A DNA stretch of 43,042 nucleotides, taken from positions 1 to 43,042 of IMG/VR virus record IMGVR_UViG_3300033153_008504, one strand, 5' to 3'. This DNA is from a virus (taxonomy: Duplodnaviria; Caudoviricetes). The notes beneath the pieces were generated by a model. The model was not told the origin of the DNA. It did no database searches and saw only the letters and a program-made list of their open reading frames with translations. The translations under genes and the position numbers were made by a program. Below, in pieces: positions 7,899 to 40,163 of this stretch; within the stretch, counting starts at the first letter, position 1, and each line of letters starts with the position of its first letter.

Positions 7899-7935
7899 AA
7901 TGTATCTCTTTTCTTTAAGGGTTTGACATACCCTT

Positions 7936-8505: not shown

Positions 8506-8506
8506 T

Positions 8507-13035: not shown

Positions 13036-13610
13036 AATTCTCTTGATTTTTGATATTCATCTATTGGCATAGTCGGGGCGTCTTCTCTTCCCGTATCTAT
13101 TCTATTTTTGTTAGACCAAGAACGGAACTCTACCTCGTTTGATTCTTCGCTTATATTCACCAGCGATTCTATGGTTTCGTGTAAAACAATTTCAAAGTCA
13201 TACTTCTTAATCCAAGTCGGCAAACCTTTGTCTCTCAATAATTGGTCTAATTTTCTGCTAAATATATCTCTTTTTTGGGCGGTATCCGCCCCAAGAACAT
13301 TTGACGGCAAAAGGATAGCTTTAAACTCTTTTATCTCGCCTCTTTTAAATGCTTCTTTTAGGGCTTCTATTCTGTGAGAGCCGTCAACTATTAAATAAGG
13401 CGGTTCAAACTGATTATAGGTAAATACGGTAAGGTCGTATCTCTCTGGATATTCTGGCTTGCTGTTATTCCCCTTTTGAAAGTTCACTAACTCTTTTTCT
13501 AAATACTTTCTATCTTTAATAAACTTGGGGTGCTTCAACCTACGGTCAATTATCTTATATCTATCTATATTGTCAGGGATTATTTTGGTTTCTATAATTT
13601 CGTATTTCAT
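13032..13610 (-). CDS. ParB/sulfiredoxin-like N-terminal domain protein
   Basis: YLIVDGSHRIEAL motif. Confidence 0.6.
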   Translation of the reverse strand: MKYEIIETKIIPDNIDRYKIIDRRLKHPKFIKDRKYLEKELVNFQKGNNSKPEYPERYDLTVFTYNQFEPPYLIVDGSHRIEALKEAFKRGEIKEFKAILLPSNVLGADTAQKRDIFSRKLDQLLRDKGLPTWIKKYDFEIVLHETIESLVNISEESNEVEFRSWSNKNRIDTGREDAPTMPIDEYQKSREL

Positions 13611-14041
13611 TTCATTTTAGAAAGGATAAATATCAATTCTGAACCTTGTTTATCGTTTTGGACTATTAAGAAGTTTTCAAGTTCAGGCACTCTGGTTATC
13701 GCTTCAAGCCGAGCTTCGTTCCAAAATGATTTATGTCCCCAATAATAAGCTGTTGGATGTGTCTGGTGCGGGCATCGGTGATGGGTTCTTCCCTTCGGCT
13801 TTAATACCCGATAAATTTCTCTGAATAAATCAATGCTTTCATCGTCAGTCAAATGCTCTATAAAGTGGCAAGAATACACTTCTTCAACTGAATTATCTGG
13901 AAATGGTATTCCCTTTGTTAAATCCCAAACCATATCTTGTCCGCAGTCCCTTAAATCTATGTTAATAAAGCCGTCCATATGCTGGTCGCCGCAGCCAAGA
14001 TGAAGTCTTATGGGTTTTTTATATTCTGGAAACCTTCTCAT
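13607..14041 (-). CDS. Class I SAM-dependent methyltransferase
   Basis: LHLGCG, NIDL, IPFPDNSVEEVYSCHFIEHL, YRVLKPKG. Confidence 0.9.
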   Translation of the reverse strand: MRRFPEYKKPIRLHLGCGDQHMDGFINIDLRDCGQDMVWDLTKGIPFPDNSVEEVYSCHFIEHLTDDESIDLFREIYRVLKPKGRTHHRCPHQTHPTAYYWGHKSFWNEARLEAITRVPELENFLIVQNDKQGSELIFILSKMK

Positions 14042-15129
14042 TTGTTTTGTGGGTCAAAGGCGTCTTCCCATAGATGTATTACTTTCTTTATTGTCCTGTT
14101 TTCTTTAACCCAATCAGATTGTTTTTTGGCGACCTTTTTTCTGAAATCTTTATCAGCCAATAATCTTTCAAGTTTATTTATCCAATCTTTCACTTTGTTT
14201 TTAGCACAATATCCCACCTCTTCTTTGTAAGGAAGGGTTTTTGATGCTAATGTTGCCGCTCCGATAGTCGCATATTCGTAAAACTTCACGCAACTCTTTG
14301 AATGGTTAAACTCATTGTCATTTAACGGAGCAACACCTATATCTATATCCAAGCTGTTTAAAACGCTGGGATACATAACAGGCGGGTAAAACGGAATGTG
14401 AAAGAAGTTCAGATTTTGTATCCTTTTCCAAAAATCTAACGCACTTTTTAAATAAACGCTTTGTTCTGGCTGTAAGCCATATTGAACTATTCTCTCATAA
14501 CTCCACATTTCTGATTCCAGCGGTTTGGCACAAATTCCCTGAATGATAAAGCTGAAGTCATATTTCTTTTGAAGTTCTAAAATAACATCTGGAAGTATCG
14601 CTAAATCTTTCCAATGAGAGGCAGCACCAGCATAAGCCACTCTTAATTTGTCTTTTGGCGGCTTATCTTTGTTAAGAATAAATACCTCTGGGTTAATTGC
14701 ATTCGGGCAAACATAGACATTCTTATTAAATCTTCTTAACTTTTTAGCCAAATGTTTGGTAGTAGTTGTAATTGCATCGCATTCTGCCATTAAATGTTCG
14801 TATTGCCTTCTCTTTTCTTCCGATATTGTGAAGGACGGGTTTTCTGGGTTTACCGTCCATAAGTCATCATCAACTTCATAAACTACTTTTTTGCCCAATC
14901 TTTTAAACTTCCTTAATGTCATTAAGGGGTCAATGGGATATATTCTGCTAAATACAGCAGTATCGCACCACCTCATTATTTCTTCTTTAAGCCCTCTGCC
15001 AGAATTAAGGGCTATAAATTGGACTTCGTGCCCTCTCTTTGATAAAGCGGTTCCTGGCGTATGATTTCTATAATACCAGCATCCGTTATTAAAAGCGTAG
15101 GGCGAATCAAGGATATATAAAATTTTCAT
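14038..15129 (-). CDS. GT-B (GT4-like) glycosyltransferase
   Basis: YEVDDDLW, VCPNAI, DIGVAPL...FNHSKSCVKFYEY. Confidence 0.85.
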   Translation of the reverse strand: MKILYILDSPYAFNNGCWYYRNHTPGTALSKRGHEVQFIALNSGRGLKEEIMRWCDTAVFSRIYPIDPLMTLRKFKRLGKKVVYEVDDDLWTVNPENPSFTISEEKRRQYEHLMAECDAITTTTKHLAKKLRRFNKNVYVCPNAINPEVFILNKDKPPKDKLRVAYAGAASHWKDLAILPDVILELQKKYDFSFIIQGICAKPLESEMWSYERIVQYGLQPEQSVYLKSALDFWKRIQNLNFFHIPFYPPVMYPSVLNSLDIDIGVAPLNDNEFNHSKSCVKFYEYATIGAATLASKTLPYKEEVGYCAKNKVKDWINKLERLLADKDFRKKVAKKQSDWVKENRTIKKVIHLWEDAFDPQNK

Positions 15130-15412: not shown

Positions 15413-16351
15413 TTAGTTAAGTCCTACAGTAGCTACAGTTAAGAACCTGCTTTGATTCTTGGTAAAGACCGTTGAACCATACACAACATAGGCAGAAATA
15501 TTATAACCGTGCTTGTCAGAAACCTTGTCAATTTGAATTGTCGGGCTTTTCTGAATAGCAAGGTCAATAGCACCTCTTTTGCCGAAATAAGCTATTTCGT
15601 AATTAGCGTCAATCTGAGCACTATTAGCAGCGGAAATAGCAGCATTTCCAGCAGAAGGAGATGTCCCTGTTGGAACGTTATTGGAAACATAGATTTTGAA
15701 ACCCATAAAGTCTCCAGCATAACCGTTCCTCAAGGTAGCATCTGCTACATTGTATCCTACAGAAGTGGCTTTGGTTTCAATCAACCCAGCAATTGACGGG
15801 TGAACAATTGAAATCCAATCTCCATTTTCTGCAACATTCAACTTTCTTAACTCAAGCCTCGCTTTAGAAAACATATCTATAACATTGGCAGTAGAAGCTG
15901 AAACAGCGTGAGCTGATGTTCCACCAGCAACCATCTCTTCAGCAGTTCTAACCGCACCGCTATACATGTTATTCAAAGCGTGGGTATCAATAGCATCCCT
16001 TAATTGGTAAGCAATTTCTTCTTGTAAGGCTGTTCTAAGGTTAATGTTAGTCTGCAACTGCTCGACATCATCAACGTAGATAGGAACTGTCTTATACTGG
16101 TCAACAGTGAGCTGGTCTTTGTGCCAGTCTTGGTCTTGAGCTGTAAAAGCTGTTCCTGGAGTGTAAGTAGTTGCTGATAAGCTGTCAAAATAGGGTTTGT
16201 TCAGAACATCTGCATACCTTATTTCGTCGTTCATATCAACATTACATACATCCATTGCTACTAATGTCTTATAAAGCGGGATTTGCACCGCATCCGACCA
16301 TAATTCAGGCTGGATGGCACTAACATCATTTGAAACTGTATCTGAAGCCAT
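15413..16351 (-). CDS. Major capsid protein (P22-coat/HK97-fold)
   Basis: 312 aa, 'IQPELWS', 'LTVDQYK', 'G.AGDFMGFKIYVSNNVP', 'YG' near the C-terminus; follows portal and scaffold. Confidence 0.85.
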   Translation of the reverse strand: MASDTVSNDVSAIQPELWSDAVQIPLYKTLVAMDVCNVDMNDEIRYADVLNKPYFDSLSATTYTPGTAFTAQDQDWHKDQLTVDQYKTVPIYVDDVEQLQTNINLRTALQEEIAYQLRDAIDTHALNNMYSGAVRTAEEMVAGGTSAHAVSASTANVIDMFSKARLELRKLNVAENGDWISIVHPSIAGLIETKATSVGYNVADATLRNGYAGDFMGFKIYVSNNVPTGTSPSAGNAAISAANSAQIDANYEIAYFGKRGAIDLAIQKSPTIQIDKVSDKHGYNISAYVVYGSTVFTKNQSRFLTVATVGLN

Positions 16352-16378
16352 CTTACTTGCTTGCCCTTCCTAAACAAG

Positions 16379-16921
16379 CTACTTGCGAGATTTCACTGTC
16401 GGGAACTTCTTTAAAAATCCCCTTTTAGCGAAATATTCGTTTTTCTCATCAAGGGTCATCTCGGAGTAAGGCTTTTCGCCTCCCTCTGTAGATTGCTTAG
16501 TTGTGGGCTCAGGAATGTTATCTTGAGCGACCTTTTCTTGATGAGCTTTTTGCCAAAGAACGAAGTTCTCATCTTTCCTTGCCTCTGATAAGGGTTTGTT
16601 CAAAATTTTAGCTCTATTTTTGAGCTCCGCCACTTCAGTTGAGTCAAGACCCTTAATGGCTTCTTGAATTTCTAAAATGGCATCTACATCTATATTTGGC
16701 TTTGCCTTTTGCAGCTCTTCTTTGGCTGCTTTGGCTTCTTCCTCGGCTTTTTTCATCCGAGCATATAGCCGTTTTTCCCTGTCAGTTGGCTCGTCTTGGT
16801 CTTTGGTTTCTTTTTTGGGAGTTTCCTTCTCCTCCTTTGGAGTTTGTTCAGAACCTTCTTCGGGTTCTTCAGGGGTCTCCTCTTCCTCTGGATTTTGTTG
16901 AGTTTTCTCTTCTTCAGTCAT
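16379..16921 (-). CDS. Capsid scaffolding protein
   Basis: Acidic disordered N-terminus, coiled coil, directly upstream of the capsid gene. Confidence 0.7.
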   Translation of the reverse strand: MTEEEKTQQNPEEEETPEEPEEGSEQTPKEEKETPKKETKDQDEPTDREKRLYARMKKAEEEAKAAKEELQKAKPNIDVDAILEIQEAIKGLDSTEVAELKNRAKILNKPLSEARKDENFVLWQKAHQEKVAQDNIPEPTTKQSTEGGEKPYSEMTLDEKNEYFAKRGFLKKFPTVKSRK

Positions 16922-16953
16922 ATAATTTTTTGCGATTATGACTTAATCGACCT

Positions 16954-17205
16954 TTACTCGTATTGCTCTTTTACCCTTGTGGGTAAAGTTTCCCGTTTTT
17001 TTAATTTGCTTTTTATTTCTATCAATTTTTTAATTGCTAATTGCCTGCCAGTAAGGATAATTGTTTTCTCTTCAGAAGGTATGCCTATAATTGTCCTAAC
17101 GGAATCAAGTTCGGCTATTTTCTCATCAATTAAATCTTTAACTGCTTCTCCTTGAGAAGTATTAGCCATATTTTTTAATATCTTTTCCCTCATTTCTTTT
17201 TTCAT
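16954..17205 (-). CDS. Small hypothetical protein between portal and scaffold
   Basis: 83 aa; overlaps the portal stop codon. Confidence 0.6.
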   Translation of the reverse strand: MKKEMREKILKNMANTSQGEAVKDLIDEKIAELDSVRTIIGIPSEEKTIILTGRQLAIKKLIEIKSKLKKRETLPTRVKEQYE

Positions 17206-18956
17206 ACTCTTGTTTCAGCCGAAGCTGGGGCTATTGTTGGTATTTGCGGTCGGCTTACTCCTCCCCCCACTCCTTTTTCTGGGATTAACCTTTCAATTCC
17301 TTTTTCCGTTTCTTCATCTAAATCTAAATCTGCTGGTCTAATTCCTCTTGCTTCCATTATCCTGAATAATATTTTTCTTTTAATTGGGTTAGTAAGAGCA
17401 GTCGGGTCAGCTGTTATTGCCTGTAAGATAAATATCAAGTCATTTGTGAAGGCGGTAATATCCTTTTGCTCTCCTGTAATAATGATATTTATATTATCCT
17501 TTAGGTTTTTGTAGAAGTTTTCTGGTATTTTAGCTAATATCTCTTTGCCTTGTTTTACTTTTTCTTCTATCGCCGCTTTTATAGTTTCAAACCTCTTTTT
17601 GTCTGGCAAACTCTTTTTCCTCTTAATAAAGTCAAACAGAGCTTCGGTAGCTTTATGGGAGATTATTGTTTTTCTAACCTTGTCTAAATCATTGCCAGCA
17701 ATTCTTAATATGTGTTCTTTGCTGTTTTCCTGCTCAAACCAAGGAAGTATTTTCTTAAACAGGTATTCTTTAACATCTATCGCTATGTCTTCCCTTAATT
17801 GGTTAAACCAACCGCCGCTCATAAAAGCAGCTAATTGGGCTGAACCTAATGGAGTTCCTGCTGGCAGACGTTCACCTTGAACAACATCATAAGCAAATGA
17901 CAATTCATCTCTGTTTTTCATCCATTTTTCCGTTGCCAGATTAAAGTAAGACAAGTTCCTTTCTGTCATATCTATCGGGTCTATGCGAGAATCAGATGTC
18001 AAAACCTGTCCGTCTACAACCTCGTCATTTAAGTTAATATTTACATCTTCGCCCCTTGTCTGCCAAACATGTAAAGCGGCATAATAATCGCCTTTTGCTT
18101 CTAAATTAGCTATTTCGTTATGCCTGACCTGCGGTTCAAACAAAGTTTCCACAACTCCAACTCCAAGCCATCTGCCCGGGATTTTTAATCTGTGGAATTC
18201 AAAATAAGGGTGATTTTCTATTGTTTCTTGCTGTAAAACTACCCCTGCGTGGGGAATTGTTTCTTTGGTAATCGAGTCTTCTTCATCTCTGCCCACATCA
18301 GCTATAATTATCCTTTGATATTTATAATCGCTGTTTTCGTCTGGATACTCCCCGTATCTTTCATAAACGGTTAAGTGGGTTTCATCGTTCATTTCCCTGA
18401 ATTTTTCCAAAGCTAAATCGGCTTTTTTCCAGCCGAGCTTTTTAGATAATCTCTTAAATTCAACAGGCGTGTAAAGATGAGTTTCTATTATGTAGTTAGC
18501 GGCGTCTAATGTATCTGTTGTTTGTTCAACAACGAAGTTCCTTAAATCAACGAAATACGGAACTCCTTTAATGGTCTTGATAACCACCGAACCAAACTTG
18601 GGTCTTTCGTCAAATATCCTATTTAATACTTTGCTGAAGTTTTTTTCCTTCATCCACGACTTTAAGTCCCTTTCCATATACCAAGTTTTATTGGGGTCTC
18701 CGCCGTGGGTTGTTTCCATTTTTATATCTTTTAAATCAAAGTCAGTTGCTTTCCTTTCCACCCCGCAGGGATTTAAGATAACATTATAGAAATGCTTTTT
18801 CTGCCCCTCGTTATCCCTGCTTCCCGTGCGAAACTTTGAATTCAAATAGCGGTATATTCTTTCTATGGTTTTCTTTTGGTTAAAAGAAAAGCCGTCAACT
18901 ATGTTGATTTCAGTATTTTGAAACTCCTCTATTTCCCGTTTAATCTGTTTAAGCAT
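17202..18956 (-). CDS. Portal protein
   Basis: 584 aa between terminase and scaffold; 'PGRWLGVGVVETL', 'VVQGE.LPAGT' segments. Confidence 0.8.
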   Translation of the reverse strand: MLKQIKREIEEFQNTEINIVDGFSFNQKKTIERIYRYLNSKFRTGSRDNEGQKKHFYNVILNPCGVERKATDFDLKDIKMETTHGGDPNKTWYMERDLKSWMKEKNFSKVLNRIFDERPKFGSVVIKTIKGVPYFVDLRNFVVEQTTDTLDAANYIIETHLYTPVEFKRLSKKLGWKKADLALEKFREMNDETHLTVYERYGEYPDENSDYKYQRIIIADVGRDEEDSITKETIPHAGVVLQQETIENHPYFEFHRLKIPGRWLGVGVVETLFEPQVRHNEIANLEAKGDYYAALHVWQTRGEDVNINLNDEVVDGQVLTSDSRIDPIDMTERNLSYFNLATEKWMKNRDELSFAYDVVQGERLPAGTPLGSAQLAAFMSGGWFNQLREDIAIDVKEYLFKKILPWFEQENSKEHILRIAGNDLDKVRKTIISHKATEALFDFIKRKKSLPDKKRFETIKAAIEEKVKQGKEILAKIPENFYKNLKDNINIIITGEQKDITAFTNDLIFILQAITADPTALTNPIKRKILFRIMEARGIRPADLDLDEETEKGIERLIPEKGVGGGVSRPQIPTIAPASAETRV

Positions 18957-19110
18957 TTTTTGTTTTTAGATGACCTTTATAGGTTTTACCGCTTTTAAGA
19001 AAACAAATATGGCGGTATTTTCCTTTTGGGACACCCCATCTTTTGCTGGGACCTGTAATAGTCCTTATTTTGCCTCCTTTTTTACGGCAGTTTTCGAAAC
19101 CTTTGGGCAT
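18949..19110 (-). CDS. Small basic hypothetical protein (53 aa, not in ORF track)
   Basis: Hand translation MPKGFENCRKKGGKIRTITGPSKRWG...; fills the gap between neighbouring genes. Confidence 0.6.
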   Translation of the reverse strand: MPKGFENCRKKGGKIRTITGPSKRWGVPKGKYRHICFLKSGKTYKGHLKTKNA

Positions 19111-19111
19111 A

Positions 19112-19267
19112 TTATAATTCTGTTATTTGCTTAATAAGAACTTCAACCTTTGCAGAATCAATAGTACCGACAGGAGCTACATCCCACGCTCTTGTCGCTT
19201 CTAAAACAATTCTGCGGGCTTCTTGCTCTTTTTTGGGTTTTTGCTCTTTTTTCTTTTTTTTAATCAT
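19112..19267 (-). CDS. Small hypothetical protein (51 aa, not in ORF track)
   Basis: MIKKKKKEQKPKKEQEARRIVLE...; overlaps the terminase stop. Confidence 0.5.
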   Translation of the reverse strand: MIKKKKKEQKPKKEQEARRIVLEATRAWDVAPVGTIDSAKVEVLIKQITEL

Positions 19268-20723
19268 ATTGATATAATCTTTTTTTAAATGATTTAGACC
19301 TTTCTACGGCTTTTGTAGCCATTGTTGTTGGGGTAATCCCCCAATATGCTAATAATGTGCTCATAATATCGTCATCGTGAAATCCTCTTTGAGCCCCCGC
19401 CCCCTTTTGGCGGGCTTCATCTGACCAAATAAATGTGTTTAGTTCGTCAATGGTCTCTTGGTCATATATTCTGGGAAATCCTTTTCTTAATAAATCTTGA
19501 AAGTGCGATATTAAAGCTTGTTTAGTTTGGTAATTAGTATTGAACCCGAGTTTTTCTGTTTCTCTCTTTTCTCGGTAATCCATCTGCATTCTTTTATATA
19601 TCCTTAAATCGGCTATTTGTTGGATTAACGCTGTTCCAGAAGCATTGCTCTCTGGAATAATCAGCGGTTTCTTGTATTTATAATAAAGATATTTTACTTT
19701 TTCAGCTAAACCTGGAATTGTCGTATATCCGTTAAACTTGGCAACTTTTCTTCCATCTAAACTAACAACTGATATTGATGAAGGGTCAACTGAACCCTCT
19801 GACGGGTCAACTCCCATTTGATATAAGCCCCATTTTGGCTGTTCGTAAATCTCGCATCCTTCTTCTACAGCTAATGGCGGCTTAACCAAACTTCTCATCT
19901 TTTTAATATATTCATCGGCAAACACCGCTCTGCTGGTTAAAACATCTGGTGTCCATTCCCCGTAAACATATCTCTTGATATAGTTTTCATCGTGCTGTAA
20001 TTGGTCTTCTAAATAATCATCTGGGAGATTGTCTTTGTTATCCATCATTGAACCCTGATAATAAGCTCTGTCTGTCGGCGGTTCTTTTGGAACAACCCAT
20101 TTTTCATTATAATAATTCTCTTTCTTTACAAAATAGTGGTATCCCCAATAATTAGCTGGGTTGGTGGTCATATTCCCTTGCCTAACAGGAACATTCCGCC
20201 TCATTCTGGTTCTCAATGTATTAAATACTTCGTATTCCACTTCTTCTAATTGGTCTATAAAGAACCCCCCTATGTTAATGCTCTTTAACTTCTGCTGGGC
20301 TTTCTTAATATCCGCCATATTCCCTTGTTGTAAGCTGTCTAACCCAAATAATATAATCTTTGAACCGTTATAAAAGTTAATCACAGCGTCTTTAACTCGG
20401 TGGTGATACCATTTTGCGGGCATTAAATCAAACAAATCTGGCAATATAGCCCTTTCTATGTCTTGAAGCGTCTTTCTGCCTAATACTAGGCTATTATTTG
20501 GAAAACACTTGCAGGACAGTATTAACTTAATGTAAAGAGCAAGCGATTTGCCGCAACCGTAACCGCCTGAATACAAACAAAACCTGTCTTTAAAGTTAGA
20601 AATAAACTCTCTTTGGTTTGTGGAAAACTTGTATTTCTTGCCATTAAGCTCAATTTCATCTAATTTAATCTCTCCTTTTACCAGCCCCTGCCCTAATTGT
20701 TCCCATTCGTTAGTTCGTGTCAT
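19260..20723 (-). CDS. terL: Terminase large subunit
   Basis: Walker A GGYGCGKS, Walker B FFIDQLEE, TTNP, nuclease GVDPS and HDDDIMS. Confidence 0.93.
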   Translation of the reverse strand: MTRTNEWEQLGQGLVKGEIKLDEIELNGKKYKFSTNQREFISNFKDRFCLYSGGYGCGKSLALYIKLILSCKCFPNNSLVLGRKTLQDIERAILPDLFDLMPAKWYHHRVKDAVINFYNGSKIILFGLDSLQQGNMADIKKAQQKLKSINIGGFFIDQLEEVEYEVFNTLRTRMRRNVPVRQGNMTTNPANYWGYHYFVKKENYYNEKWVVPKEPPTDRAYYQGSMMDNKDNLPDDYLEDQLQHDENYIKRYVYGEWTPDVLTSRAVFADEYIKKMRSLVKPPLAVEEGCEIYEQPKWGLYQMGVDPSEGSVDPSSISVVSLDGRKVAKFNGYTTIPGLAEKVKYLYYKYKKPLIIPESNASGTALIQQIADLRIYKRMQMDYREKRETEKLGFNTNYQTKQALISHFQDLLRKGFPRIYDQETIDELNTFIWSDEARQKGAGAQRGFHDDDIMSTLLAYWGITPTTMATKAVERSKSFKKRLYQYD

Positions 20724-31013: not shown

Positions 31014-33494
31014 TTATAAACTTTCCCCTAATTTATTGCTAATATAATTAAAACATACCCCGTGAAGCTCTACTGTATCTGTAATGGTGTCTTGGACATC
31101 AGCTGAAAGACGGGTTAATTTGAAAGAAATAGTAGCATCAGTATCGCTTGGAGCGTTTATTCCTGCAACATTAGCGACTACTAATCCGTTAGCAGTAGCG
31201 GACGCTGAACTGACTATCGTAATGGTTTCTTCCCCGTCTTGGGTTAAATCTTCATTTTCTGAAAACCAGCGGTATTTTAATTGCCATTTTACATTTCCTG
31301 TTGAAGCCGAACTCCACCCAATTCTTAATGTTGGAGGTTCACTTCTATCCATACTGTAAGGAATAGCAATTCTCCAGCTTACGCTTTCTTGGTTTGCCTC
31401 TACTCCCTCATCAGAGAATTCCCACGCCGAAGTTTCTAATGTTCCAAATGATACTTCAGTAGCTGGTTTAGCGCCCGGCGCTTTTATTCCTGCCGCATCT
31501 ATCCATAAGTCCTTGGTTACTCTGGCTGTTCCGTGTAGATTTATTTCGCCATCTGTTTTTATTTCAGTATAATTAGTTTCTCCGCCAATTGTGGCTTCTC
31601 CAGCGATAATGCCATGTGCTCCTAAATCTAAATCGGTTGTAGCTCCTGTGTAGGGGACATAGCCAGATAAATCTGGCACGAGACGCCACTCTGCTCTGTC
31701 CCAGTATTTTAATACCCCTGACGGTGCTTCACTGGGGCTTGGGCTTGGGCTTACCGAAGGCGAAGGGCTTGGGCTTAATGAAGCACTAGGCGAAACGCTT
31801 GGCGACGGGCTTGGCGAGACAGAGGGGCTTAATGAAGGCGATAATGATGGAGAGAGAGAAGCCGATGGGCTAACAGACGGGGATACGGACGGACTGGGAC
31901 TTGGTGAAATACTGGGGCTTAAACTGGGGCTTTCTGACGGAGATGGTGAAGGAGACAAGCTGGGAGAGATAGATGGACTTAATGAAGCTGACGGGCTAAC
32001 ACTGGGAGATACGCTTGGACTAGGGCTGGGAGACAAGCTGGGCGAAAGCGAAGGACTAGGGCTTGGACTAACGCTTGGGCTTAAGCTAGGGCTGGGTGAA
32101 GGACTAATAGATGGTGATAACGATGGGCTTGGTGATGGTGATAACGATGGAGAAGGACTTTCTCCGATTGACGGAGAAGGACTAGGCGATATACTGGGGC
32201 TTATAGAAGGACTATGACTGGGCGATAAACTTGGGGACAAAGAAGCGCTTGGACTTATAGATGGTGAAACACTCGCACTTTCACTTGGGGAAGGACTTGG
32301 CGACAGGGACGGACTAACGCTCGGGCTTGGCGATGGTGAAATACTGGGAGAAAGAGAAGCTGAAGGACTTAAACTTGGACTAGGAGATGGTGAAATGCTG
32401 GGTGATAAGCTGGCACTTGGGCTGATAGAGGGTGATGGACTTGGCGAGACAGAGGGGCTAATAGAAGCAGATGGGCTTTGAGAGGGCGAGGGAGAAGGAG
32501 AAATACTTGGTGAAACTGAAGGCGAAGCACTAGGCGAAGGGCTAGGCGATATACTCGGACTTAATGAAGGACTAGCGCTTGGACTAGGGCTTGGGGATAG
32601 CGAAGGGGATAAACTCGCACTAGGGCTTACAGACGGAGAAACACTTGGAGATGGCGATGGGCTTAAACTCGGTGATAAAGAGAGCGATAAAGAAGGACTT
32701 GGCGACGGGCTGACAGACGGGCTAAGAGATGGGCTGGCAGAACCAACCGCTGGCACCCAGAATATCCCTTGTTTTTTAAACATCTGAAAGGGATTTGTAT
32801 AAAGAGCTTTTATTTCATCAGCACTCAACGCCCTATTATATATCATTACATTGTCGAGTTCGCCGTTCCAAGAATTACTACCAGTGAAAGAAATCGAAAA
32901 GTCGAAATCGCTATTCGTTATATCCTTACCGTTAAACGAGCTAATACTGAAAGAGCCTACATTCTGCCCGTCCAAGTAGAATGTGACATTAGCACTTCTG
33001 TCAGCCACAGCCATCACATGATGCCAATTGTTATCTTGAATCCCTAATGAACTGTTTGAAACAGGATATATCCTTGTTGAACCATCTGAGATAGAAAGAG
33101 ACAACCTGTCATTTGTATTATTATAAAAAAACCAATATCCCTCAGTGGTTACAGTATTTCCTCCTTTAATAACAATAGTCTGAAATTCGTTGGCCTGTGT
33201 CTTTATCCATGCTGAAATAGTTATATCTGAAACACCCATTTCTAAGATTGAGGGATTTCCACAATCAACATAATCCGAAGTTCCATCAGAGTTTAGGCAA
33301 GAGCCGTATTTGCCAGCAGTAAAATGTGTATCTGCTTGTAAAGTGCCTGTATTCCCGTATCCACTTAAATCATAGACCTTACTACCTCTCCCCTCATTCA
33401 TTAGCCACCACCCAACTAAACCTTTAATTAAAGGGTGGTTTTTATCATACTTTGCCCCTAAATGAGGTTTTTTTATTCGGTGATAAGGGAACAT
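31014..33494 (-). CDS. LamG/ConA-like domain + ~335 aa Ser/Pro mucin-like tract + C-terminal fibre-like domain
   Basis: GLVGWWLMNEG.G..VYDLSGYGN.GTL, TISAWIK, WHHV, GELDNVMIYNRALSADEI..LY; 'YVPYTGATTDLDLG' fibre motif. Confidence 0.85.
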   Translation of the reverse strand: MFPYHRIKKPHLGAKYDKNHPLIKGLVGWWLMNEGRGSKVYDLSGYGNTGTLQADTHFTAGKYGSCLNSDGTSDYVDCGNPSILEMGVSDITISAWIKTQANEFQTIVIKGGNTVTTEGYWFFYNNTNDRLSLSISDGSTRIYPVSNSSLGIQDNNWHHVMAVADRSANVTFYLDGQNVGSFSISSFNGKDITNSDFDFSISFTGSNSWNGELDNVMIYNRALSADEIKALYTNPFQMFKKQGIFWVPAVGSASPSLSPSVSPSPSPSLSLSLSPSLSPSPSPSVSPSVSPSASLSPSLSPSPSPSASPSLSPSISPSPSPSASPSVSPSISPSPSPSQSPSASISPSVSPSPSPSISPSASLSPSISPSPSPSLSPSASLSPSISPSPSPSVSPSLSPSPSPSESASVSPSISPSASLSPSLSPSHSPSISPSISPSPSPSIGESPSPSLSPSPSPSLSPSISPSPSPSLSPSVSPSPSPSLSPSLSPSPSPSVSPSVSPSASLSPSISPSLSPSPSPSESPSLSPSISPSPSPSVSPSVSPSASLSPSLSPSLSPSVSPSPSPSVSPSASLSPSPSPSVSPSPSPSEAPSGVLKYWDRAEWRLVPDLSGYVPYTGATTDLDLGAHGIIAGEATIGGETNYTEIKTDGEINLHGTARVTKDLWIDAAGIKAPGAKPATEVSFGTLETSAWEFSDEGVEANQESVSWRIAIPYSMDRSEPPTLRIGWSSASTGNVKWQLKYRWFSENEDLTQDGEETITIVSSASATANGLVVANVAGINAPSDTDATISFKLTRLSADVQDTITDTVELHGVCFNYISNKLGESL

Positions 33495-34600: not shown

Positions 34601-35569
34601 TTATTTTAATTTGTTTAAATCTTCCTCTTTCCAACCTTTAACTGGCATAAACTTTTTAACCAGCCAAGAAAGAGGTTTTATTTGTTTTTTGTATTTGTTA
34701 TTCCAAAATAAATCTTTAATATATTGTTTTGTTTTAACCACATCTTTGCCCTTATTTGGATAAGGAAAGCCGAAATCTCCACCTTGCGTCCTGAACATAT
34801 GGGCATACCAAGTATTGTGGTTTACCAACACCCTGTGCCCTGATAACCACGCCTTACAAGCCAATTCTACGCCTTGATTTCCCCAGCTACCCGCCTTTTC
34901 ATCACATAGATTTAATTCACTATACAGCTTCTTGGTGCACATAAAACAACTTCCCTGCAAACTCATTGTTTCTGTAAAGCCCGTTTTTCTTTGTTTCTTA
35001 TAAGTATCAGTTTTCTTCCATTCGTTAAAGTATTGAAAGTGGGGTTCTGTGTCAAAGCAATACGATACGCTTTGGGGTCGTTCCTTTCCTATCCATTTCA
35101 TATCTTTATAAACTTTACCCCCGCAGTTAGGACATTTTTCTGGGGTTGGTCCTTGATATTTCTTCCATTCGCACTCCTTACATTTCCAGTCAAAAGCCCA
35201 CAAGTTCCTCATAACAGGCACTATCATAGCATCTTCTCTGCCTTTAAATCCTTTTATCATTTTGCGGTCAAATCCCTTATCAAAGCTACAATGGGCGTCT
35301 ACTTTCATTACATATCTGCCCCTCGCTAATCTCCAACCTATGTTAGCTCCGCCCCTCTGTCCTACGGGAGTTTTAGAATAAAATATATTTACCCTTTCGT
35401 GCTGGGGGATTGGCGGGTTAGGGAAGCTCTCATCACAAACTGCTATTATTTCCGTGTCTGCTTCTATGTTTTTTAAGATATCTTCTATTGTTTCCCGCAA
35501 AAATATCTCATTTCTGCTTGGTATAATTATACTCAATTCGCAAGGTTCCATAACATTTTTGTATCCCAA
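34601..35569 (-). CDS. GT-A glycosyltransferase (GT2/ppGalNAc-T-like) with a Zn-ribbon insert
   Basis: LSIIIPSRNE, DAHC, QGSCF, WGNQGVEL..KAW..G, YAHMFR; CKEC..CPNC insert. Confidence 0.85.
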   Translation of the reverse strand: MGYKNVMEPCELSIIIPSRNEIFLRETIEDILKNIEADTEIIAVCDESFPNPPIPQHERVNIFYSKTPVGQRGGANIGWRLARGRYVMKVDAHCSFDKGFDRKMIKGFKGREDAMIVPVMRNLWAFDWKCKECEWKKYQGPTPEKCPNCGGKVYKDMKWIGKERPQSVSYCFDTEPHFQYFNEWKKTDTYKKQRKTGFTETMSLQGSCFMCTKKLYSELNLCDEKAGSWGNQGVELACKAWLSGHRVLVNHNTWYAHMFRTQGGDFGFPYPNKGKDVVKTKQYIKDLFWNNKYKKQIKPLSWLVKKFMPVKGWKEEDLNKLK

Positions 35570-36234
35570 ACTGGGATATCTTTTAATTCATATTCTTTAA
35601 AGTTTTTACAATTTCTCTTGTCCCTAAAATGTTCTATCTTCGTTCTGCCAGTGCCTGATAGGTTCTTCCCGTGCCTTATGTCTATATTTGGATACTTGCT
35701 TATAAAGTTAGCAAATCCGTAATCATCTACATTCCTGCTGTGTCCTGTTCCTGGTTCATATCCATAGAACTTTCTTTCTCTCCCGTTTTCTATTATTTTA
35801 ATCTTCTTCTCATAATGTTGGATTAAGAGCTCCCTATTGGCACATAATTGGGACAGCCATCGGCAGTCATATTTAACAACTATTCTGCCCTTTAATTTAT
35901 ATTTATAAACATTGTTGTTGTAATAGTAGGTATCATCTCTGGGCGGGTCAAACTCAAAATGCGATGGGTGATATAAAACATCGTGTTCTGCCATAAAGAT
36001 ATAATCTGCTTTGCTTTTCTTTAATCCGTATAATATCTGCTTAAACATCATTAGGTATCCCCTTTCTCCTTTTAGGACATAGTTCTGTCCTATATCAACT
36101 GGCTTGTTTAATGACACGGACACAATGGGAAGCCCTATCTTTTTAAGTAATTCTTGAACAAGATTAAATACTTCCTTGTTCTTCATTTTGTTGTCTGTGT
36201 AGTATAAGATTGATTTCATTTTACCCAGAACCAA
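35533..36234 (-). CDS. GT-A-like glycosyltransferase
   Basis: ADYIFMAEHDVLY (DxD-equivalent); located between GT genes. Confidence 0.65.
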   Translation of the reverse strand: MVLGKMKSILYYTDNKMKNKEVFNLVQELLKKIGLPIVSVSLNKPVDIGQNYVLKGERGYLMMFKQILYGLKKSKADYIFMAEHDVLYHPSHFEFDPPRDDTYYYNNNVYKYKLKGRIVVKYDCRWLSQLCANRELLIQHYEKKIKIIENGRERKFYGYEPGTGHSRNVDDYGFANFISKYPNIDIRHGKNLSGTGRTKIEHFRDKRNCKNFKEYELKDIPVWDTKMLWNLAN

Positions 36235-37664
36235 GAAGCGTGCCTGTCGGCTCTATACACTTTAGCGTTGGTATCAGTTAAATATACAGGGGATATGTGA
36301 TGAGTTTTGGTAAAGTCATCTACTGCTTTTTTAACCTGCCTTATATGTTTGGGGTAGCCGTGAGTATTATAATCATGCCCAGATATTATACCGCCTTTTT
36401 TTACCTTTCTTTCCCAGAGAATTATATCCAGCATTACCCAGTTATATTCGTGGTTACCGTCTATATAAACAAAGTCCAAAGATTTATCTGGTATCTTGTT
36501 AAAAGCAGTTTCTGATTTTTCTTCTAACCAAACAATATCTCGCCCTTTCATTAGTTTGTGGGACATTTTCTTCATTTCGGGGTGTTCTCTGGCATATTTT
36601 TTGCCGCCAGGATAATCATAATACGGGTCAACTAAATACATCTTCAAACAGGGAATGCCCTTAAACATTAAATCACTAAACTCTCCTTTTGCCACCCCTA
36701 TTTCAGCACCAACCTTATAGCCCAGCTCTTTCCATAGTTTTACCAGCCCAATTCTGTTTAATCCTTTAATAACTCTTGGATATTCTGACGCTTGATTTAA
36801 ATTATATTTATCTAATATAAACCTGTTAGTTTTTAATCTATCCCATCTTCTGTCCCAACCTGGAATTGGCTTAAACTTCTTTAAAACCATATCAAGGGTT
36901 GGTCTTCCTTCTCCTTTAACCCAGTATTGTATGGCATATTTACGGGATTTTTTCCACTCATTGCCTGGCTTCTTATAACCTCTGTCGTTTCCTCTTTTTC
37001 CTACCCTCTTCTTTTTATGGGCATACCAAGTATTTCTATTAAGAATATATCTGCCACCTGCTTGGTAGGTTTTTAAGCATACTTCTTGGGCTTCTGCCCC
37101 CATAGTTCCATAGTTCTTGTCATCTAACCCACCTATTTTCTCAAAGAACTTTTTATGCATAAACCAGCAACTTCCTTGTGATGTCATTAAATCAATTATC
37201 TTTTGGTCTTTTGGAACTCTTGCCGAGTATTCTGCCCAGTCAACTCCTTTAAAAGTGTAATTCGGGTCTTTGGGGTGGCTTATGTATTGGAAGTCATAGT
37301 ATATTTCTTCTGGATGTTTAGTCCAATTTGCCTTATCTATCGCATATCTTCTTGGAACTATCACCCAATTTTCTTCACAGTCAGTTTTTAATTTGGTATC
37401 AAACCCTTTATCAAAGGCACAATGGGCATCGCACTTCATTAAGTATTTCCCTGTTGCCTTTTTAGCCCCCGCATTTATAGCACTTCTCATTCCTTTAACT
37501 TCTTTTCTGTGGATATTTATTACTCCTTTGGGCAACTTGGGCTTTACTTCATCTGATACCACTATTACCTCTATTTCCCCTTCGGCTTTATTTAAAAGGT
37601 CTTGCACAGTTTGTTGCAGATAAACCTCATTTCTGCTTGGTATTATTATAGATACTTTTTCCAT
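36216..37664 (-). CDS. GT-A glycosyltransferase (ppGalNAc-T-like) fused to a class I SAM methyltransferase
   Basis: VSIIIPSRNE, DAHC, QGSCWFM, TWYAH; C-terminal GAEIGVAKG, DFVYIDGNH, VKKGGIISGHDY. Confidence 0.88.
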   Translation of the reverse strand: MEKVSIIIPSRNEVYLQQTVQDLLNKAEGEIEVIVVSDEVKPKLPKGVINIHRKEVKGMRSAINAGAKKATGKYLMKCDAHCAFDKGFDTKLKTDCEENWVIVPRRYAIDKANWTKHPEEIYYDFQYISHPKDPNYTFKGVDWAEYSARVPKDQKIIDLMTSQGSCWFMHKKFFEKIGGLDDKNYGTMGAEAQEVCLKTYQAGGRYILNRNTWYAHKKKRVGKRGNDRGYKKPGNEWKKSRKYAIQYWVKGEGRPTLDMVLKKFKPIPGWDRRWDRLKTNRFILDKYNLNQASEYPRVIKGLNRIGLVKLWKELGYKVGAEIGVAKGEFSDLMFKGIPCLKMYLVDPYYDYPGGKKYAREHPEMKKMSHKLMKGRDIVWLEEKSETAFNKIPDKSLDFVYIDGNHEYNWVMLDIILWERKVKKGGIISGHDYNTHGYPKHIRQVKKAVDDFTKTHHISPVYLTDTNAKVYRADRHASWFWVK

Positions 37665-38437
37665 TTTGGTTTTATTATTTTACGATAATAATCTTCCCAG
37701 TCATCAAAGAACACTTGAACCGCTTTTTGTGCCTCTGATGTGGGGTAGTTGTGGGTTCTTGAAAAGCTGACGTGTTTGTGGGCAAACCAAGTATTCTTGT
37801 TAACTATCATTTTACCGCCTGCTTTCCAAGTTTTAAATATCATCTCGTGGCTGTCTTGTAATAAATGTCCATATTTTATATCTAACTTCTTAATAACCTT
37901 CTGCCACCAGCGTCTTCTCATAAACCAGCAAGAGCCCTGCATTCCCATTGTTTCGTCTATATTTGGGCGGTTTGGTCTTTCCCAAGACATACCCGTAAAC
38001 TTCCTGCCATTGCCTATTTTTTGTATTCCTAATCTCTCATAATCAACAGGTGGTATATCCATTACTTCCCATTTTTCGGGGTCTAAACAATATCTTCTGG
38101 GCGTTACTATCCAATTCTTTTCCATATTCTCGGTAATTATTCGGTCAAACCCTTTGGCAAATATACAATGGCTGTCTGTTCTCATTAAATATCTGCCCCT
38201 TGCCACTGATACTCCTGCATTTATTGCTTCTCTCATTCCCCTTGTTTTTCCTAAATGTAAGTATTTTACTCTCGGGTCATCTACTATCCTATCTGAACTT
38301 TCCCACCAACCATCTAAAATCGCTATAATTTCAAGTTCTGTTTCAGCGTTCTTTAATATGTCTTCAATTGTGGGTTTTAAATACTTTTCTTTATAACTTG
38401 GTATTACTATTGACAGGTTCATATTAAAATAATACAA
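37646..38437 (-). CDS. GT-A glycosyltransferase (ppGalNAc-T-like)
   Basis: LSIVIPSYKE, DSHC, QGSCWFM, TWFAH. Confidence 0.85.
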   Translation of the reverse strand: MYYFNMNLSIVIPSYKEKYLKPTIEDILKNAETELEIIAILDGWWESSDRIVDDPRVKYLHLGKTRGMREAINAGVSVARGRYLMRTDSHCIFAKGFDRIITENMEKNWIVTPRRYCLDPEKWEVMDIPPVDYERLGIQKIGNGRKFTGMSWERPNRPNIDETMGMQGSCWFMRRRWWQKVIKKLDIKYGHLLQDSHEMIFKTWKAGGKMIVNKNTWFAHKHVSFSRTHNYPTSEAQKAVQVFFDDWEDYYRKIIKPKWKKYL

Positions 38438-38890: not shown

Positions 38891-39373
38891 CTATTTAGTT
38901 TCATCTTCTGTTATTAAATGTTCCATCTCTTCTGTTTTGAAATTATCCAAGATGTATTTGATAATCCTTGATGAGGAACGGAAGCGTGAACCTGGCTGTC
39001 GGTCAAGCACCACCATATCTATGTGAAGTTCTTGGCAGAGTTTAATCTCTTCTTTTAAAGTATCGTGGTTAACCTCGGAAGTCCTCACATAAATATCTGG
39101 CTTTACTAACCGAATGCCTCTTAAAGCGATATTCTTGTCTGGCTCATCGTGAACCACTATTGCCTCATCAACCGCTTTCAAATTGCTGATAACGGTTAAT
39201 CTCTCCTTTTCTGAATAAATAGGCAACGCTTTGTGTTTCTTACTTCTTATCCTCTCATCAGAGGTTATCATTACAACCAGATAATCTCCAAATGTTTTGG
39301 CTTTGTTAATAACTTCAATATGCCCCGAATGAAACATATCAAAGCTACCGCCAAATAATACTTTTTTAAACAT
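38891..39373 (-). CDS. Cytidylyltransferase/adenylyltransferase (TagD/RfaE-type); start moved to MFKKVLFGG
   Basis: GSFDMFHSGH (HxGH), K...PIYSEKER, SSSRII; SD AAGGAG upstream of 39373. Confidence 0.85.
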   Translation of the reverse strand: MFKKVLFGGSFDMFHSGHIEVINKAKTFGDYLVVMITSDERIRSKKHKALPIYSEKERLTVISNLKAVDEAIVVHDEPDKNIALRGIRLVKPDIYVRTSEVNHDTLKEEIKLCQELHIDMVVLDRQPGSRFRSSSRIIKYILDNFKTEEMEHLITEDETK

Positions 39374-39392
39374 AATTTTCTCCTTAAAAGAA

Positions 39393-40163
39393 CTATGATG
39401 TATCCACCCATAAATCCCCAACCGAAGGATTTGAGGGTTCTGTGTCTGATACGGTTATTTTCTTTGTGGGGTCTCCTATTATTCTTGTATCTATTTGTTG
39501 TTGTAAACCCATACCCAGCTTTCTGAAATCTGGCATTCCCATTATGTCCATATTCTTTTCAAAGTTCTCTGAAAAACTATCCGAGAAATTCTTTTCAACT
39601 TCTTTAACTATCTCTTTAAACTTCGGAATGTCATTTAACCTATTATACACCTCTGCGTGGCTTTCTTGCAACGCATAAAGGTCTTTTCTTAATTCGCTTA
39701 ACTTGCTTGGGTCTATTTCTTTAATTCTTTCAATGGTCTTTATAACTTTGGTAATCGGCTTTTCTTTAACTATCTGTTCAACTACTTCCCTTTTAACAAT
39801 GGTTTTAGGTGGCTTTTTTTTTAATACTTCTAATGCGTCTAATATAACTTTGTGGGAACTCCTTATTTCTTCTCTAACGCTGTCTATATCTGGCTTAATA
39901 ATTGAAATAACATCTTCTTTGACTTTATTAAAGGATTGTTCTTTCTTTTGTTCTTTTTCTTTTTTTAATTGCGTTTTTATTTCTTCATATTCGGCTATTG
40001 TTAACCCCTTTCCTCTTAACAAGGTTTCTTTAACTTCTTTTAATTTATTTTGAAAATCGGGAGTAGTTATATCTACGCCCTCTTCAATAGCTTCCTTTTC
40101 CATCTTATTTAAGATGGTCATTATCATTTTTTGGATTTTTCTAAATTCTTCTATTGAAATCAT
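39393..40163 (-). CDS. Coiled-coil protein with a C-terminal 'EPSNPSVGDLWVD' fibre-type motif; start moved to MISIEEF
   Basis: ORF track 39393..40217; the ATG at 40163 follows the HNH stop. Confidence 0.6.
   Translation of the reverse strand: MISIEEFRKIQKMIMTILNKMEKEAIEEGVDITTPDFQNKLKEVKETLLRGKGLTIAEYEEIKTQLKKEKEQKKEQSFNKVKEDVISIIKPDIDSVREEIRSSHKVILDALEVLKKKPPKTIVKREVVEQIVKEKPITKVIKTIERIKEIDPSKLSELRKDLYALQESHAEVYNRLNDIPKFKEIVKEVEKNFSDSFSENFEKNMDIMGMPDFRKLGMGLQQQIDTRIIGDPTKKITVSDTEPSNPSVGDLWVDTS

Follow-up and report, generated by a model that had tools for sequence, protein, structure and literature searches.

A tailed-phage cluster of GT27-like transferases predicted to O-glycosylate the phage's own Ser-Pro-Ser-X tracts

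Introduction

Mucin-type O-glycosylation is regarded as belonging to the secretory pathway of animals and protists. The genome of an uncultivated tailed phage (IMG/VR record IMGVR_UViG_3300033153_008504; the window, i.e. the whole stretch of 43,042 nucleotides analysed here) raises the question of whether viruses of bacteria encode a comparable pathway. A preliminary description of this DNA recognized three paralogous GT-A enzymes with motifs reminiscent of the polypeptide GalNAc-transferases (ppGalNAc-Ts; family GT27) and proposed that they could act as peptide O-glycosyltransferases on Ser/Pro tracts. The reading favored here, drawn from the sequences and their distribution and given a probability of about 0.62, is that four adjacent, anchor-less enzymes work in the cytoplasm as an O-glycosylation assembly line acting on the phage's own Ser-Pro-Ser-X (SPSx) tracts; the Zn-ribbon enzyme would prime, and the other three would extend and methylate. 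No description of a phage GT27-like/Ser-Pro tract system was found in the literature.

The phage genome and its transferase cluster

The genes for a major capsid protein, portal, and terminase large subunit, together with a terminal repeat of 114 bases, identify the window as a circularly complete tailed-phage genome (Table 1). The three paralogs were found where they had been placed, and two of them are each 36% identical to the third, the Zn-ribbon enzyme, referred to below as the initiator after its predicted role; the others are termed the methyltransferase-fused and the short paralog. The earlier account of the interval 34601..38437 was correct as to these genes but overlooked a fourth within it. 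The product of this fourth gene has no Pfam family and matches no PDB entry by sequence (best E 0.45), and its fold is about equally similar to GT-A enzymes (Z 12.4) and nucleotidyltransferases (Z 12.3).

Table 1. Coordinates of the features discussed in the text.
Feature	Position	Strand	Remarks
704-aa protein, predicted acceptor	4035..6149	-	directly after SU10-type adaptor gene
Second sugar block	6891..15129	-	between capsid and adaptor genes; context
Major capsid protein, portal, terminase large subunit	15413..20723	-	phage structural block
826-aa protein, predicted acceptor	31014..33494	-	LamG domain, SPSx tract, C-terminal phage domain
Zn-ribbon GT27-like transferase, predicted initiating (serine-priming) enzyme	34601..35569	-	322 aa; likely start ATG 35551
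Fourth gene, GT-A-like fold	35533..36234	-	E-H-D motif; likely start ATG 36219, overlapping the upstream gene's stop
GT27-like transferase fused to class I methyltransferase, predicted extender and capping enzyme	36216..37664	-	482 aa
Short GT27-like transferase, predicted extender	37646..38437	-	263 aa; likely start ATG 38419
Cytidylyltransferase-like nucleotidyltransferase	38891..39421	-	upstream of transferase genes

Most of the motifs attributed to the three enzymes are present. D(A/S)HC replaces DxD in all of them, and QGSCWF occurs in two, with QGSCF in the initiator. The segment SWGNQGVELACKAWLSG...WYAHMFR, thought to be common to the three, belongs to the initiator alone; the matching segments of the other paralogs (TMGAEAQEV...WYAHKKK and HLLQDSHEM...WFAHKHV) lack its Trp, Phe, and Arg. 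The reported methyltransferase fusion corresponds to a Pfam Methyltransf_24 match (residues 321–432, E 1.5e-11), and the Zn-ribbon insert is a genuine CxxC...CxxC element (C130, C133, C146, and C149; Cys4 at 35123–35182). A metal triad, DxH...H, is found in all three paralogs (D91/H93/H257 in the initiator) and by column counts is kept in 84/84 Zn-clade, 60/60 short-clade, and 106/107 other domains.

Hydropathy analysis detected no membrane segment in any of the four enzymes, the maximum 19-residue value being 0.59–0.75 for the three paralogs versus 2.24 for a holin-like gene of the phage. A family scan likewise detected no ricin-type lectin domain in the three paralogs, in which nothing follows the catalytic domain except, in one, the methyltransferase.

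The two predicted acceptors bear long tracts, spanning residues 253–590 of the LamG protein (nt 31725–32738; 167 Ser) and residues 403–664 of the 704-aa protein (nt 4158–4943; 136 Ser and 1 Thr). Proline occupies the +3 position for 169 of the 304 Ser/Thr residues in the two tracts. Gene position and a PHROG hit predict that both proteins are located on the virion.

Relationship to polypeptide GalNAc-transferases

Pfam assigns all three paralogs to GT2. The GT2 matches, however, stop near residue 100–130 and cover only the N-terminal, nucleotide-binding half, whereas GT27 spans the whole domain; an identity as ordinary GT2s is rejected for this reason. GT27 profile matches reached E-values of 3e-13 and 5e-11, far beyond chance, with the likeness of the methyltransferase-fused paralog coming from a single-sequence search only and the fold having been modelled for the short paralog. 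With the AlphaFold2 model of the latter (pLDDT 95), the Foldseek matches listed from ranks 1–50 were all ppGalNAc-Ts. When the same model was searched against 48,161 chains, GalNAc-T1 was retrieved at Z 24.8 (rmsd 2.8, 250 residues aligned) and Toxoplasma T3 at Z 23.7, followed by a non-GT27 enzyme at Z 20.6. By profile and structure alike, GT27 is the best match, as the preliminary description had anticipated, and the closest solved relatives of the paralogs are ppGalNAc-Ts rather than ordinary GT2s, namely GalNAc-T1 (8V9Q/1XHB), GalNAc-T2 (2FFU/4D0T), and Toxoplasma T3 (8UHV).

The likeness extends to the DxH motif and C-terminal His of the paralogs, to the aromatic pocket, gate Trp, and flexible-loop Arg of the initiator, and to the Ser/Pro tracts, which resemble GT27 acceptors in having Pro at +1 and +3. 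Yet the paralogs are not members of GT27. They share only 16–20% identity with it, lack the lectin domain and membrane anchor, have changed GalNAc-contact residues and, in the initiator, a Zn-ribbon insert, and two of them lack the pocket. Also unlike GT27, they are phage-encoded beside their presumed substrate, whose tracts are almost purely Ser. In being DxH enzymes without a lectin domain, they also recall the GT60 polypeptide alpha-GlcNAc-transferases of Dictyostelium and Trypanosoma cruzi, a family reported to include soluble cytosolic members such as the Skp1 enzyme (PMC8724618, PMC7185993). The GT60 family PF11397 gave weak matches in 10 of 58 relatives (E up to 0.1, best 0.0014) and none for the window protein.

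A peptide pocket in one paralog

Profile alignment to T1, T3, and PGANT9 places a peptide pocket (F178/Y180/F259), a gate Trp (W229), and a loop Arg (R260) in the initiator; the register of F178/Y180 is uncertain by two residues, since the range reported for GalNAc-T2 puts it two residues off. The metal triad, pocket, gate, and loop align to D209/H211/H344, F265/W267/F346, W316, and R347 of GalNAc-T1, equivalent to D224/H226/H359, F280/W282/F361, W331, and R362 of GalNAc-T2, in which F280, W282, and F361 are reported to be key to Pro-x-Pro recognition (PMC4432651). The triad, pocket, gate, and loop positions are all invariant in 84/84 Zn-clade domains, a figure that is partly circular because 57 of the loci went into the profile defining the clade, and that includes related, non-independent loci. 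None of the 60 short-clade domains retains the residues at the W229, F259, and R260 positions, and of the 107 other domains 9, 10, and 7, respectively, do so; the corresponding W331, F361, and R362 columns read M/K/K in the methyltransferase-fused paralog and L/H/gap in the short one. As judged from these alignments, the pocket residues are confined to the Zn-ribbon clade among the three paralogs.

This distribution makes one initiator with extenders likelier than three peptide O-transferases. The two other paralogs, which retain the metal triad without the pocket, are predicted to extend the glycan. The idea of a division of labor is supported, with a single pocket-bearing predicted initiator set against pocket-less paralogs, one of which carries a methyltransferase. 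The broader proposal that all three glycosylate peptides on the Ser/Pro tracts holds insofar as the enzymes are nearest to ppGalNAc-Ts and travel with the tracts in both search directions (see below), and falls short where the pocket is concerned.

A version of that proposal, in which the initiator primes Pro-flanked serines and the other paralogs fill neighboring serines or serve other virion proteins in the manner of follow-up GalNAc-Ts, is unlikely but merits consideration. The modelled fold of the short paralog has GT27 as its nearest match, and both non-Zn paralogs combine DxH...H with an acidic residue in the E334 column. Pro at +3 is missing for about half of the serines in the tracts, and GalNAc-T7 and T10 are described as peptide transferases that do not use the T/SPXP motif, so that loss of the pocket is no proof of a sugar acceptor. 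Against this stand the missing pocket, gate, and loop equivalents, the variation of the non-Zn paralogs in number and sequence compared with an invariant, single-copy initiator, their positions, which are not directly upstream of tract genes, and the methyltransferase fusion, which fits glycan capping.

The donor is a separate matter. G309 and E334 (of WGGEN) are reported as GalNAc-contact residues of GalNAc-T2 (PMC6994419). The initiator has S207 and Gln (WGNQG) in these columns, and across its clade G309 is replaced by S/A, E334 mostly by Q, and N335 by G. Because Ser and Gln align with Gly309 and Glu334, the suggestion of GalNAc as donor is unsupported, and from the sequence it is doubtful that the initiator uses this sugar. 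The E334 column holds E or D in 60/60 short-clade and 102/107 other domains, and both non-Zn paralogs of the window have Ser at the G309 column and E/D at 334.

Co-occurrence of the enzymes and the tracts

A strict DNA pattern overlooked one genuine tract (G019) and falsely matched RPRP sequence (G020, forward strand), so tracts in relatives were checked by translated scans. The initiator is single-copy in 85/85 loci, and GT27-like copies number up to four per locus. Of the 44 loci with room for a tract gene downstream of the initiator, 22 have one that begins no more than 0.5 kb away, compared with 0/50 and 0/77 for the other two clades (0/127 together). Among 77 viral loci, 56 have a tract no farther than 10 kb away, and the number rises to 60 with whole records searched; 16 of the 17 records in which no tract was found are 5–48% complete. 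In the reverse direction, of eight contigs chosen solely because they hold a long SPSx tract, six carry the enzymes, which were not found on the remaining two (18% and 38% complete). Exactly one initiator was present in four of five tract-picked records searched whole, and no enzyme was found in the fifth (14% complete). All five members of another set of fragments, four of them with tracts, have non-initiator copies only, and genome loci centred on the short paralog have a tract within the fetched DNA in only 16/54 cases. The lineage control consisted of terminase (17 loci) and capsid (6 loci) relatives, mostly fragments, 5 of the 17 terminase loci being searched whole; the within-lineage negative control is one near-complete genome, a 99% complete terminase relative without enzymes and without tracts.

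The cassette also resides in chromosomes of Patescibacteria, and in 5/5 of the genomes found by means of the initiator a tract lies downstream. The possibility that the bacterial copies are all prophages was ruled out for four of five genomes examined. The terminase of the window phage had no match in a host search of 401 genomes of a Patescibacteria sample, and the initiator had none among 50,697 deposited phage records.

The bacterial copies lie near cell-envelope genes, a context that would suit enzymes that synthesize or modify a surface polysaccharide of the host, or that glycosylate phage DNA, with the tracts being unmodified flexible spacers in the same operon. Phage glycosyltransferases acting on DNA and host serotype are indeed on record (PMC12619734), and the Pfam GT2 assignment would agree. 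Such a role is nevertheless very unlikely, given the half-domain reach of the GT2 matches, the invariance of the peptide-pocket residues in one clade, the company of tracts that the initiator keeps in phages and chromosomes alike, and the lack of a membrane segment in all four enzymes.

A further alternative is that the tracts are glycosylated but primed by another enzyme (the fourth gene product, a host enzyme, or the GT4-like product of 14038–15129 acting as GtfA does), the GT27-like paralogs serving only to extend. GtfA itself is a GT4 enzyme. The fourth gene is tightly linked to the initiator, 68 of the 85 initiator loci containing a close homolog of it and 37 having it fused to the initiator, and GtfA/B are reported to prime serine-rich adhesins (PMC6973325). 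This alternative is nonetheless improbable: no close fourth-gene homolog was found in 17 of the 85 loci, a homolog of the GT4-like gene could be detected in just 1/131, and the peptide pocket sits in the Zn-ribbon enzyme.

In favor of the assembly line, two relatives (P0241 and P0244) have the initiator, a second GT27-like domain, the fourth-gene domain, and the methyltransferase fused together. Complex prediction for the initiator and fourth gene product gave a median of 0.00 (runs 0.00, 0.62, and 0.00) and is given no weight here in either direction.

Comparison with other glycosylation systems

Mycobacteriophages Che8 (gp108–110), Corndog, and Myrna carry a transferase cluster thought to modify their own particles (PMC12363180, PMC12619734, PMC11256854, citing Freeman et al. 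2023). The present system resembles theirs as a cluster of phage-encoded glycosyltransferases, and the GT2-like plus Methyltransf_24 architecture of the methyltransferase-fused paralog recurs in Che8 gp108. Unlike the paralogs of the window, gp110, the essential transferase of that system, matches Pfam GT25; a comparison with four family profiles, by sequence profile only, revealed no similarity (E 0.4 or no match). The mycobacteriophage glycans, as far as these reports describe them, sit at the C-termini of capsid and tail-tube proteins rather than on long repeat tracts.

The serine-rich repeat adhesins of Gram-positive bacteria (GtfA/B, GtfC, dGT1) provide another parallel, being described as having Ser at every second residue and clustered cytosolic priming and extending transferases. 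The phage system differs in its priming enzyme family, Pro-rich repeats, and structural context, and in having no signal or membrane segment by hydropathy. No GtfA/GtfB or accessory Sec (SecA2/SecY2/Asp) protein was found among 34 window proteins searched with Pfam or 23 searched with NCBIfam, sets that took in few of the small ORFs of 20.7–30.7 kb.

A predicted assembly line and its implications

In the assembly line favored here, the initiator would use a nucleotide sugar and Mn2+ as in GT27, grip a proline near the acceptor serine, and add the first sugar to serine, with about 300 serines available in the two tract proteins. The other three enzymes would carry out extension and methylation, the methyltransferase presumably capping the glycan. 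Glycosylated before assembly, the tract proteins would form mucin-like brushes on the particle, where their most likely predicted benefit would be to provide a hydrated coat that resists proteases or to act as stiff spacers for lectin-like LamG tips.

If this is true, mucin-type O-glycosylation extends to viruses of bacteria and to Patescibacteria by way of a soluble, lectin-less, and anchor-less initiator, and phage virion glycosylation has its first dense-array form. It is enticing to speculate, if only tentatively, that GT27/GT60 have a third branch in the Zn-ribbon clade, carried by phages and Patescibacteria, which builds methyl-capped mucin brushes of hundreds of serines (perhaps with nonulosonic acid here) on virions, that ultra-small bacteria took the cassette into their chromosomes to serve tracts as long as 2,000 residues, and that the clade is a prokaryotic relative, still extant, of the ancestor of mucin glycosylation in animals. 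The phage initiator would also bear on the origin of GT27 and GT60. With a predicted priming enzyme and its key residues now named, the four soluble enzymes, together with a substrate of defined repeats, make up a small system amenable to E. coli, and a cytoplasmic kit for Ser-Pro O-glycosylation would be useful in glycoengineering.

As to donor supply, the cytidylyltransferase-like protein is a possible candidate for the donor-activating enzyme. The second sugar block, a type that in relatives rarely adjoins the transferases, encodes a dehydratase, a HAD phosphatase, NeuB-like, CMP-transferase-like, radical SAM, and DUF4910 proteins, a methyltransferase, and two weakly GT4-like proteins.

A transferase cassette and its predicted acceptors

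The system described here joins a cassette of glycosyltransferase genes to proteins that carry long tracts of a Ser-Pro-Ser-X repeat, and the cassette is predicted, with a probability of roughly 0.85, to glycosylate these tracts. The system itself is real; fold, residue pattern, linkage, fusions and the lack of anchors are established for the cassette, and the enzymatic roles are predictions. The window represents the circularly complete genome of a tailed, probably short-tailed, phage, as a 114-base terminal repeat at the ends of its 43,042 bases and genes for a terminase, a SU10-type portal (weak match), a major capsid protein and a SU10-type adaptor attest; almost every gene lies on the minus strand.

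Features of the window that bear on the predicted glycosylation system, with other elements
Feature	Coordinates	Strand	Remarks
LamG tract protein	31014-33494	(-)	LamG domain and long Ser-Pro-Ser-X tract; PHROG "virion structural protein" match, E 4e-13
Second tract protein	4035-6149	(-)	Long Ser-Pro-Ser-X tract; directly after adaptor gene; N-terminal domain in clusters 94-100% viral
Exact 30-base repeats	4054-4141		Three copies, ending the 704-aa second tract protein
Second sugar block	6891-15129	(-)	Between capsid and adaptor genes
Initiator (Zn-ribbon enzyme)	34601-35569	(-)	Predicted serine-priming enzyme
Fourth gene	35533-36234	(-)	Between paralogs
Third paralog	36216-37664	(-)	Fused to methyltransferase
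Short paralog	37646-38437	(-)	
HIT-family gene	38469-38852	(+)	Opposite to genome direction; between short transferase and nucleotidyltransferase
Endonuclease VII or HNH genes	33949-34323; 7936-8505; 40165-40710		Three, free-standing; two within sugar blocks
12-base repeat, ~30 copies	26119-26477		Within 25498-26691

The preliminary description recognized three paralogs sharing D(A/S)HC and QGSC(W)F, one fused to a methyltransferase and another with a Zn-ribbon insert; its coordinates are correct, and the motifs, the methyltransferase fusion and the insert, which has four cysteines, are borne out by the sequence. The SWGNQG...HMFR segment, also thought to be shared, occurs among the paralogs solely in the initiator, which is 36% identical to each of the other two, and NTW(Y/F)AH is common to all three. 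The probable ATG of the fourth gene overlaps the stop of the preceding gene. Its product matches no Pfam family; the model (pLDDT 96.6) retrieves GT-A enzymes with Foldseek (best E 2.6e-6) and scores Z about 12 against GT-A enzymes or nucleotidyltransferases. Membrane segments were found in none of the four proteins. Distant homologs of the fourth gene, several per locus in many of L001-L077 and L202-L255 (profile scores 50-130), indicate that it forms a family of several paralogs, for which Pfam has no entry.

The tracts of the LamG and second tract proteins contain 167 and 137 Ser/Thr residues. Pro stands at +3 of 96 and 73 of these, and 39 and 29 of them begin an S-P-x-P motif, described as the consensus GalNAc-T sequon (bioRxiv 2020.06.25.171371). 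All six Ser codons are in use, and Tandem Repeats Finder detects no array in the LamG protein tract and, in the other, a pair of arrays that are short and weak; the repeat is thus maintained at the protein level. Summed over loci, Ser far outnumbers Thr in the tracts (14,469 against 418). The exact 30-base repeats that end the second tract protein encode a Trp/Lys-rich 10-residue unit and contrast with the codon-scrambled tract preceding them.

Linkage of the predicted initiator to tract genes

The initiator and its relatives (the Zn clade) are single-copy in all 85 loci that have them; 68 of these carry a close fourth-gene homolog, which is fused to the Zn-clade gene in 37. Where the downstream sequence extends for 3 kb or more, a tract gene starts within 0.5 kb of the Zn-clade gene in 22/44 loci and within 3 kb in 35/44, the corresponding counts being 0/50 and 4/50 for the short clade and 0/77 and 10/77 for all others. 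In the window, initiator and tract gene are 1.1 kb apart, and two small genes and one for endonuclease VII lie in between. P0241 and P0244, found among the best 150 of 416 protein matches at E up to 1e-30 (drawn from 1.84 billion representatives), each combine in a single chain the domains of an initiator, a further GT27-like enzyme and the fourth gene with Methyltransf_24, which points to one pathway.

A scan of viral contigs gave 165 relatives, from which 77 loci were kept, and the fetched DNA contained an S/T/P tract in 57 at a loose threshold and 56 at a stricter one. For 20 of the 21 tract-less loci the whole record was searched, and a tract lay elsewhere in four; tract and enzymes occur together in 60 of the 77 records, and 16 of the remaining records are 5-48% complete. 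In the reverse direction, a Ser-Pro-repeat DNA pattern run against three of the collection's 64 parts gave 124 loci (the tool estimated about 3,000 stretches). Long tracts (at least 200 residues, about half serine) lay on eight distinct contigs, six of them with the enzymes; the two in which none were found are 18% and 38% complete. Ten of the 80 pattern loci with flanks had long tracts, one of mixed Ser/Thr, and the remaining 70, for the most part short runs of (SP)n, yielded no enzyme match above 25 bits. Tract-picked records searched whole held exactly one initiator in four of five cases, the fifth record being 14% complete; five fragments (18-48% complete) picked for an initiator-less locus had no initiator elsewhere in the fragment. 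Both features were present in one of five terminase relatives, and neither a close enzyme nor the tract pattern in the other four, one of which is 99% complete.

Copies in bacterial genomes

A genome scan yielded 54 loci, 16 with a tract in the fetched DNA; most of the named records belong to Patescibacteria, many others bear the title "uncultured Gammaproteobacteria", and two are archaeal bins. Five genomes with long contigs, in which 87 of 98 flanking ORFs of at least 250 aa were scanned, have one initiator each, with tract proteins after it; one tract is 2,032 residues long. In G006 (L261-L262) the cassette belongs to a prophage with a SU10-type portal and an integrase, and by eye its tract protein has an N-terminus like that of the second tract protein of the window. 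In the Patescibacteria-type genomes G007 (L259), G008 (L256-L257), G009 (L263) and G010 (L265) the cassette lies between housekeeping genes, and at E 1e-5 none of the scanned flanking ORFs matches a structural family of phages. Tract proteins of these four reach 2,372 aa (2,032-residue tract); three share a similar short C-terminal motif, and inspection by eye found no obvious signal peptide. An even sample of 400 Patescibacteria genomes held the initiator in five, all with a tract downstream; one of these contigs was already among the loci.

Likeness to GT27 and predicted roles

Pfam assigns all three paralogs to GT2. A short-paralog profile (120 relatives) has GalNAc-T4 as its top match (E 5e-11, positions 3-252), and GT2 structures align to just its first 80-130 positions; with a Zn-ribbon profile (58 proteins), 15 GalNAc-T sequences rank above every GT2 (best E 3e-13). 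The short paralog was modelled with AlphaFold2 (pLDDT 95), and the model retrieved only polypeptide GalNAc-transferases (GT27) among the Foldseek matches listed from ranks 1-50. Against 48,161 representative chains it matched GalNAc-T1 (Z 24.8, rmsd 2.8, 250 aligned) and Toxoplasma T3 (Z 23.7), followed by a fucosyltransferase (Z 20.6). According to PMC7185993, DxH instead of DxD is a specific feature of GT27 and of GT60, the polypeptide alpha-GlcNAc-transferases.

Profile alignment, by residue count, equates the metal triad D91/H93/H257 of the Zn-ribbon protein with D209/H211/H344 of GalNAc-T1, W229 with W316, F259 and R260 with F346 and R347, and F178/Y180 with F265/W267; an offset of 15 converts these to GalNAc-T2 numbering (D224/H226/H359, W331, F361, R362, F280/W282). 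In GalNAc-T2 the key residues for recognizing Pro-x-Pro are described as F280, W282 and F361; W331 is listed as a key residue in catalysis, and the flexible loop is said to begin at R362 (PMC4432651). The aligned range of T2 itself implies a register shifted by two residues, which would pair Y180 with Y284, also listed in the proline pocket (PMC4432651). In an alignment that covered the window and the fetched loci (251 distinct domains), F178, Y180, W229, G230, H257, F259 and R260 are kept in 84/84 Zn-clade domains, an invariance that is partly circular because 57 loci built the profile defining the clade. None of 60 short-clade domains keeps any of W229, F259 and R260, and 9, 10 and 7 of the remaining 107 domains keep them; four divergent WG...HWFR proteins counted among the 107 are placed with the Zn clade at a support of 0.87 (89 sequences). 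The metal triad is retained across all clades. The main alternative, in which the other paralogs act as follow-up transferases on peptide, appears improbable to us; we favour a role for the two pocket-less paralogs, with the fourth gene, in glycan extension or branching.

During infection the Zn-ribbon enzyme would act in the cytoplasm, moving a sugar from a nucleotide donor onto tract serines with Mn2+, its aromatic pocket engaging a nearby proline; the fused methyltransferase may cap the glycan, and the modified tract proteins would form mucin-like brushes on the particle. The complete division of labour among initiator, extenders and methyl cap is predicted with moderate confidence, lower than that for glycosylation of the tracts as such. 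G309 and E334 are described as GalNAc contacts (PMC6994419); in the Zn clade, Ser or Ala stands at the first of these positions and Gln, in most cases, at the second. GalNAc as the first sugar is rated less likely than not.

Comparison with known systems

Initiation would, by analogy, follow a logic like that of GT27 and GT60. The Zn-ribbon system falls outside GT27 in lectin domain, anchor and donor residues. GT60, too, is described as having no lectin domain and as including cytosolic relatives (PMC8724618), but the GT60 family PF11397 matches just 10 of 58 members, and these weakly. Virion glycosylation is reported for mycobacteriophages (Freeman et al. 2023, as cited in PMC11256854, PMC12363180 and PMC12619734); gp108 of mycobacteriophage Che8 shares the GT plus Methyltransf_24 architecture, and gp110 is unrelated to the cassette enzymes by profile. 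Serine-rich adhesin systems are described with a similar logic of priming and extension but different enzymes (PMC6973325). A literature search whose coverage excluded most subscription journals found nothing published on GT27-like enzymes of phages or Patescibacteria that are paired with Ser-Pro tracts.

A second sugar block and minor observations

The second sugar block encodes dTDP-glucose-dehydratase-like, HAD phosphatase, short NeuB-like synthase (234 aa) and CMP-transferase-like proteins, along with radical SAM/SPASM, DUF4910, two weakly GT4-like proteins and a methyltransferase; the block resembles a nonulosonic acid gene set carried by the phage. No NeuB/NeuA homologs were found next to the transferases in 131 related loci. 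Three initiator relatives, P0252, P0262 and P0272, carry a GIY-YIG nuclease fused in frame behind the initiator. The 12-base repeat of the window encodes QLDTQL-like units in a DUF6745-like protein.
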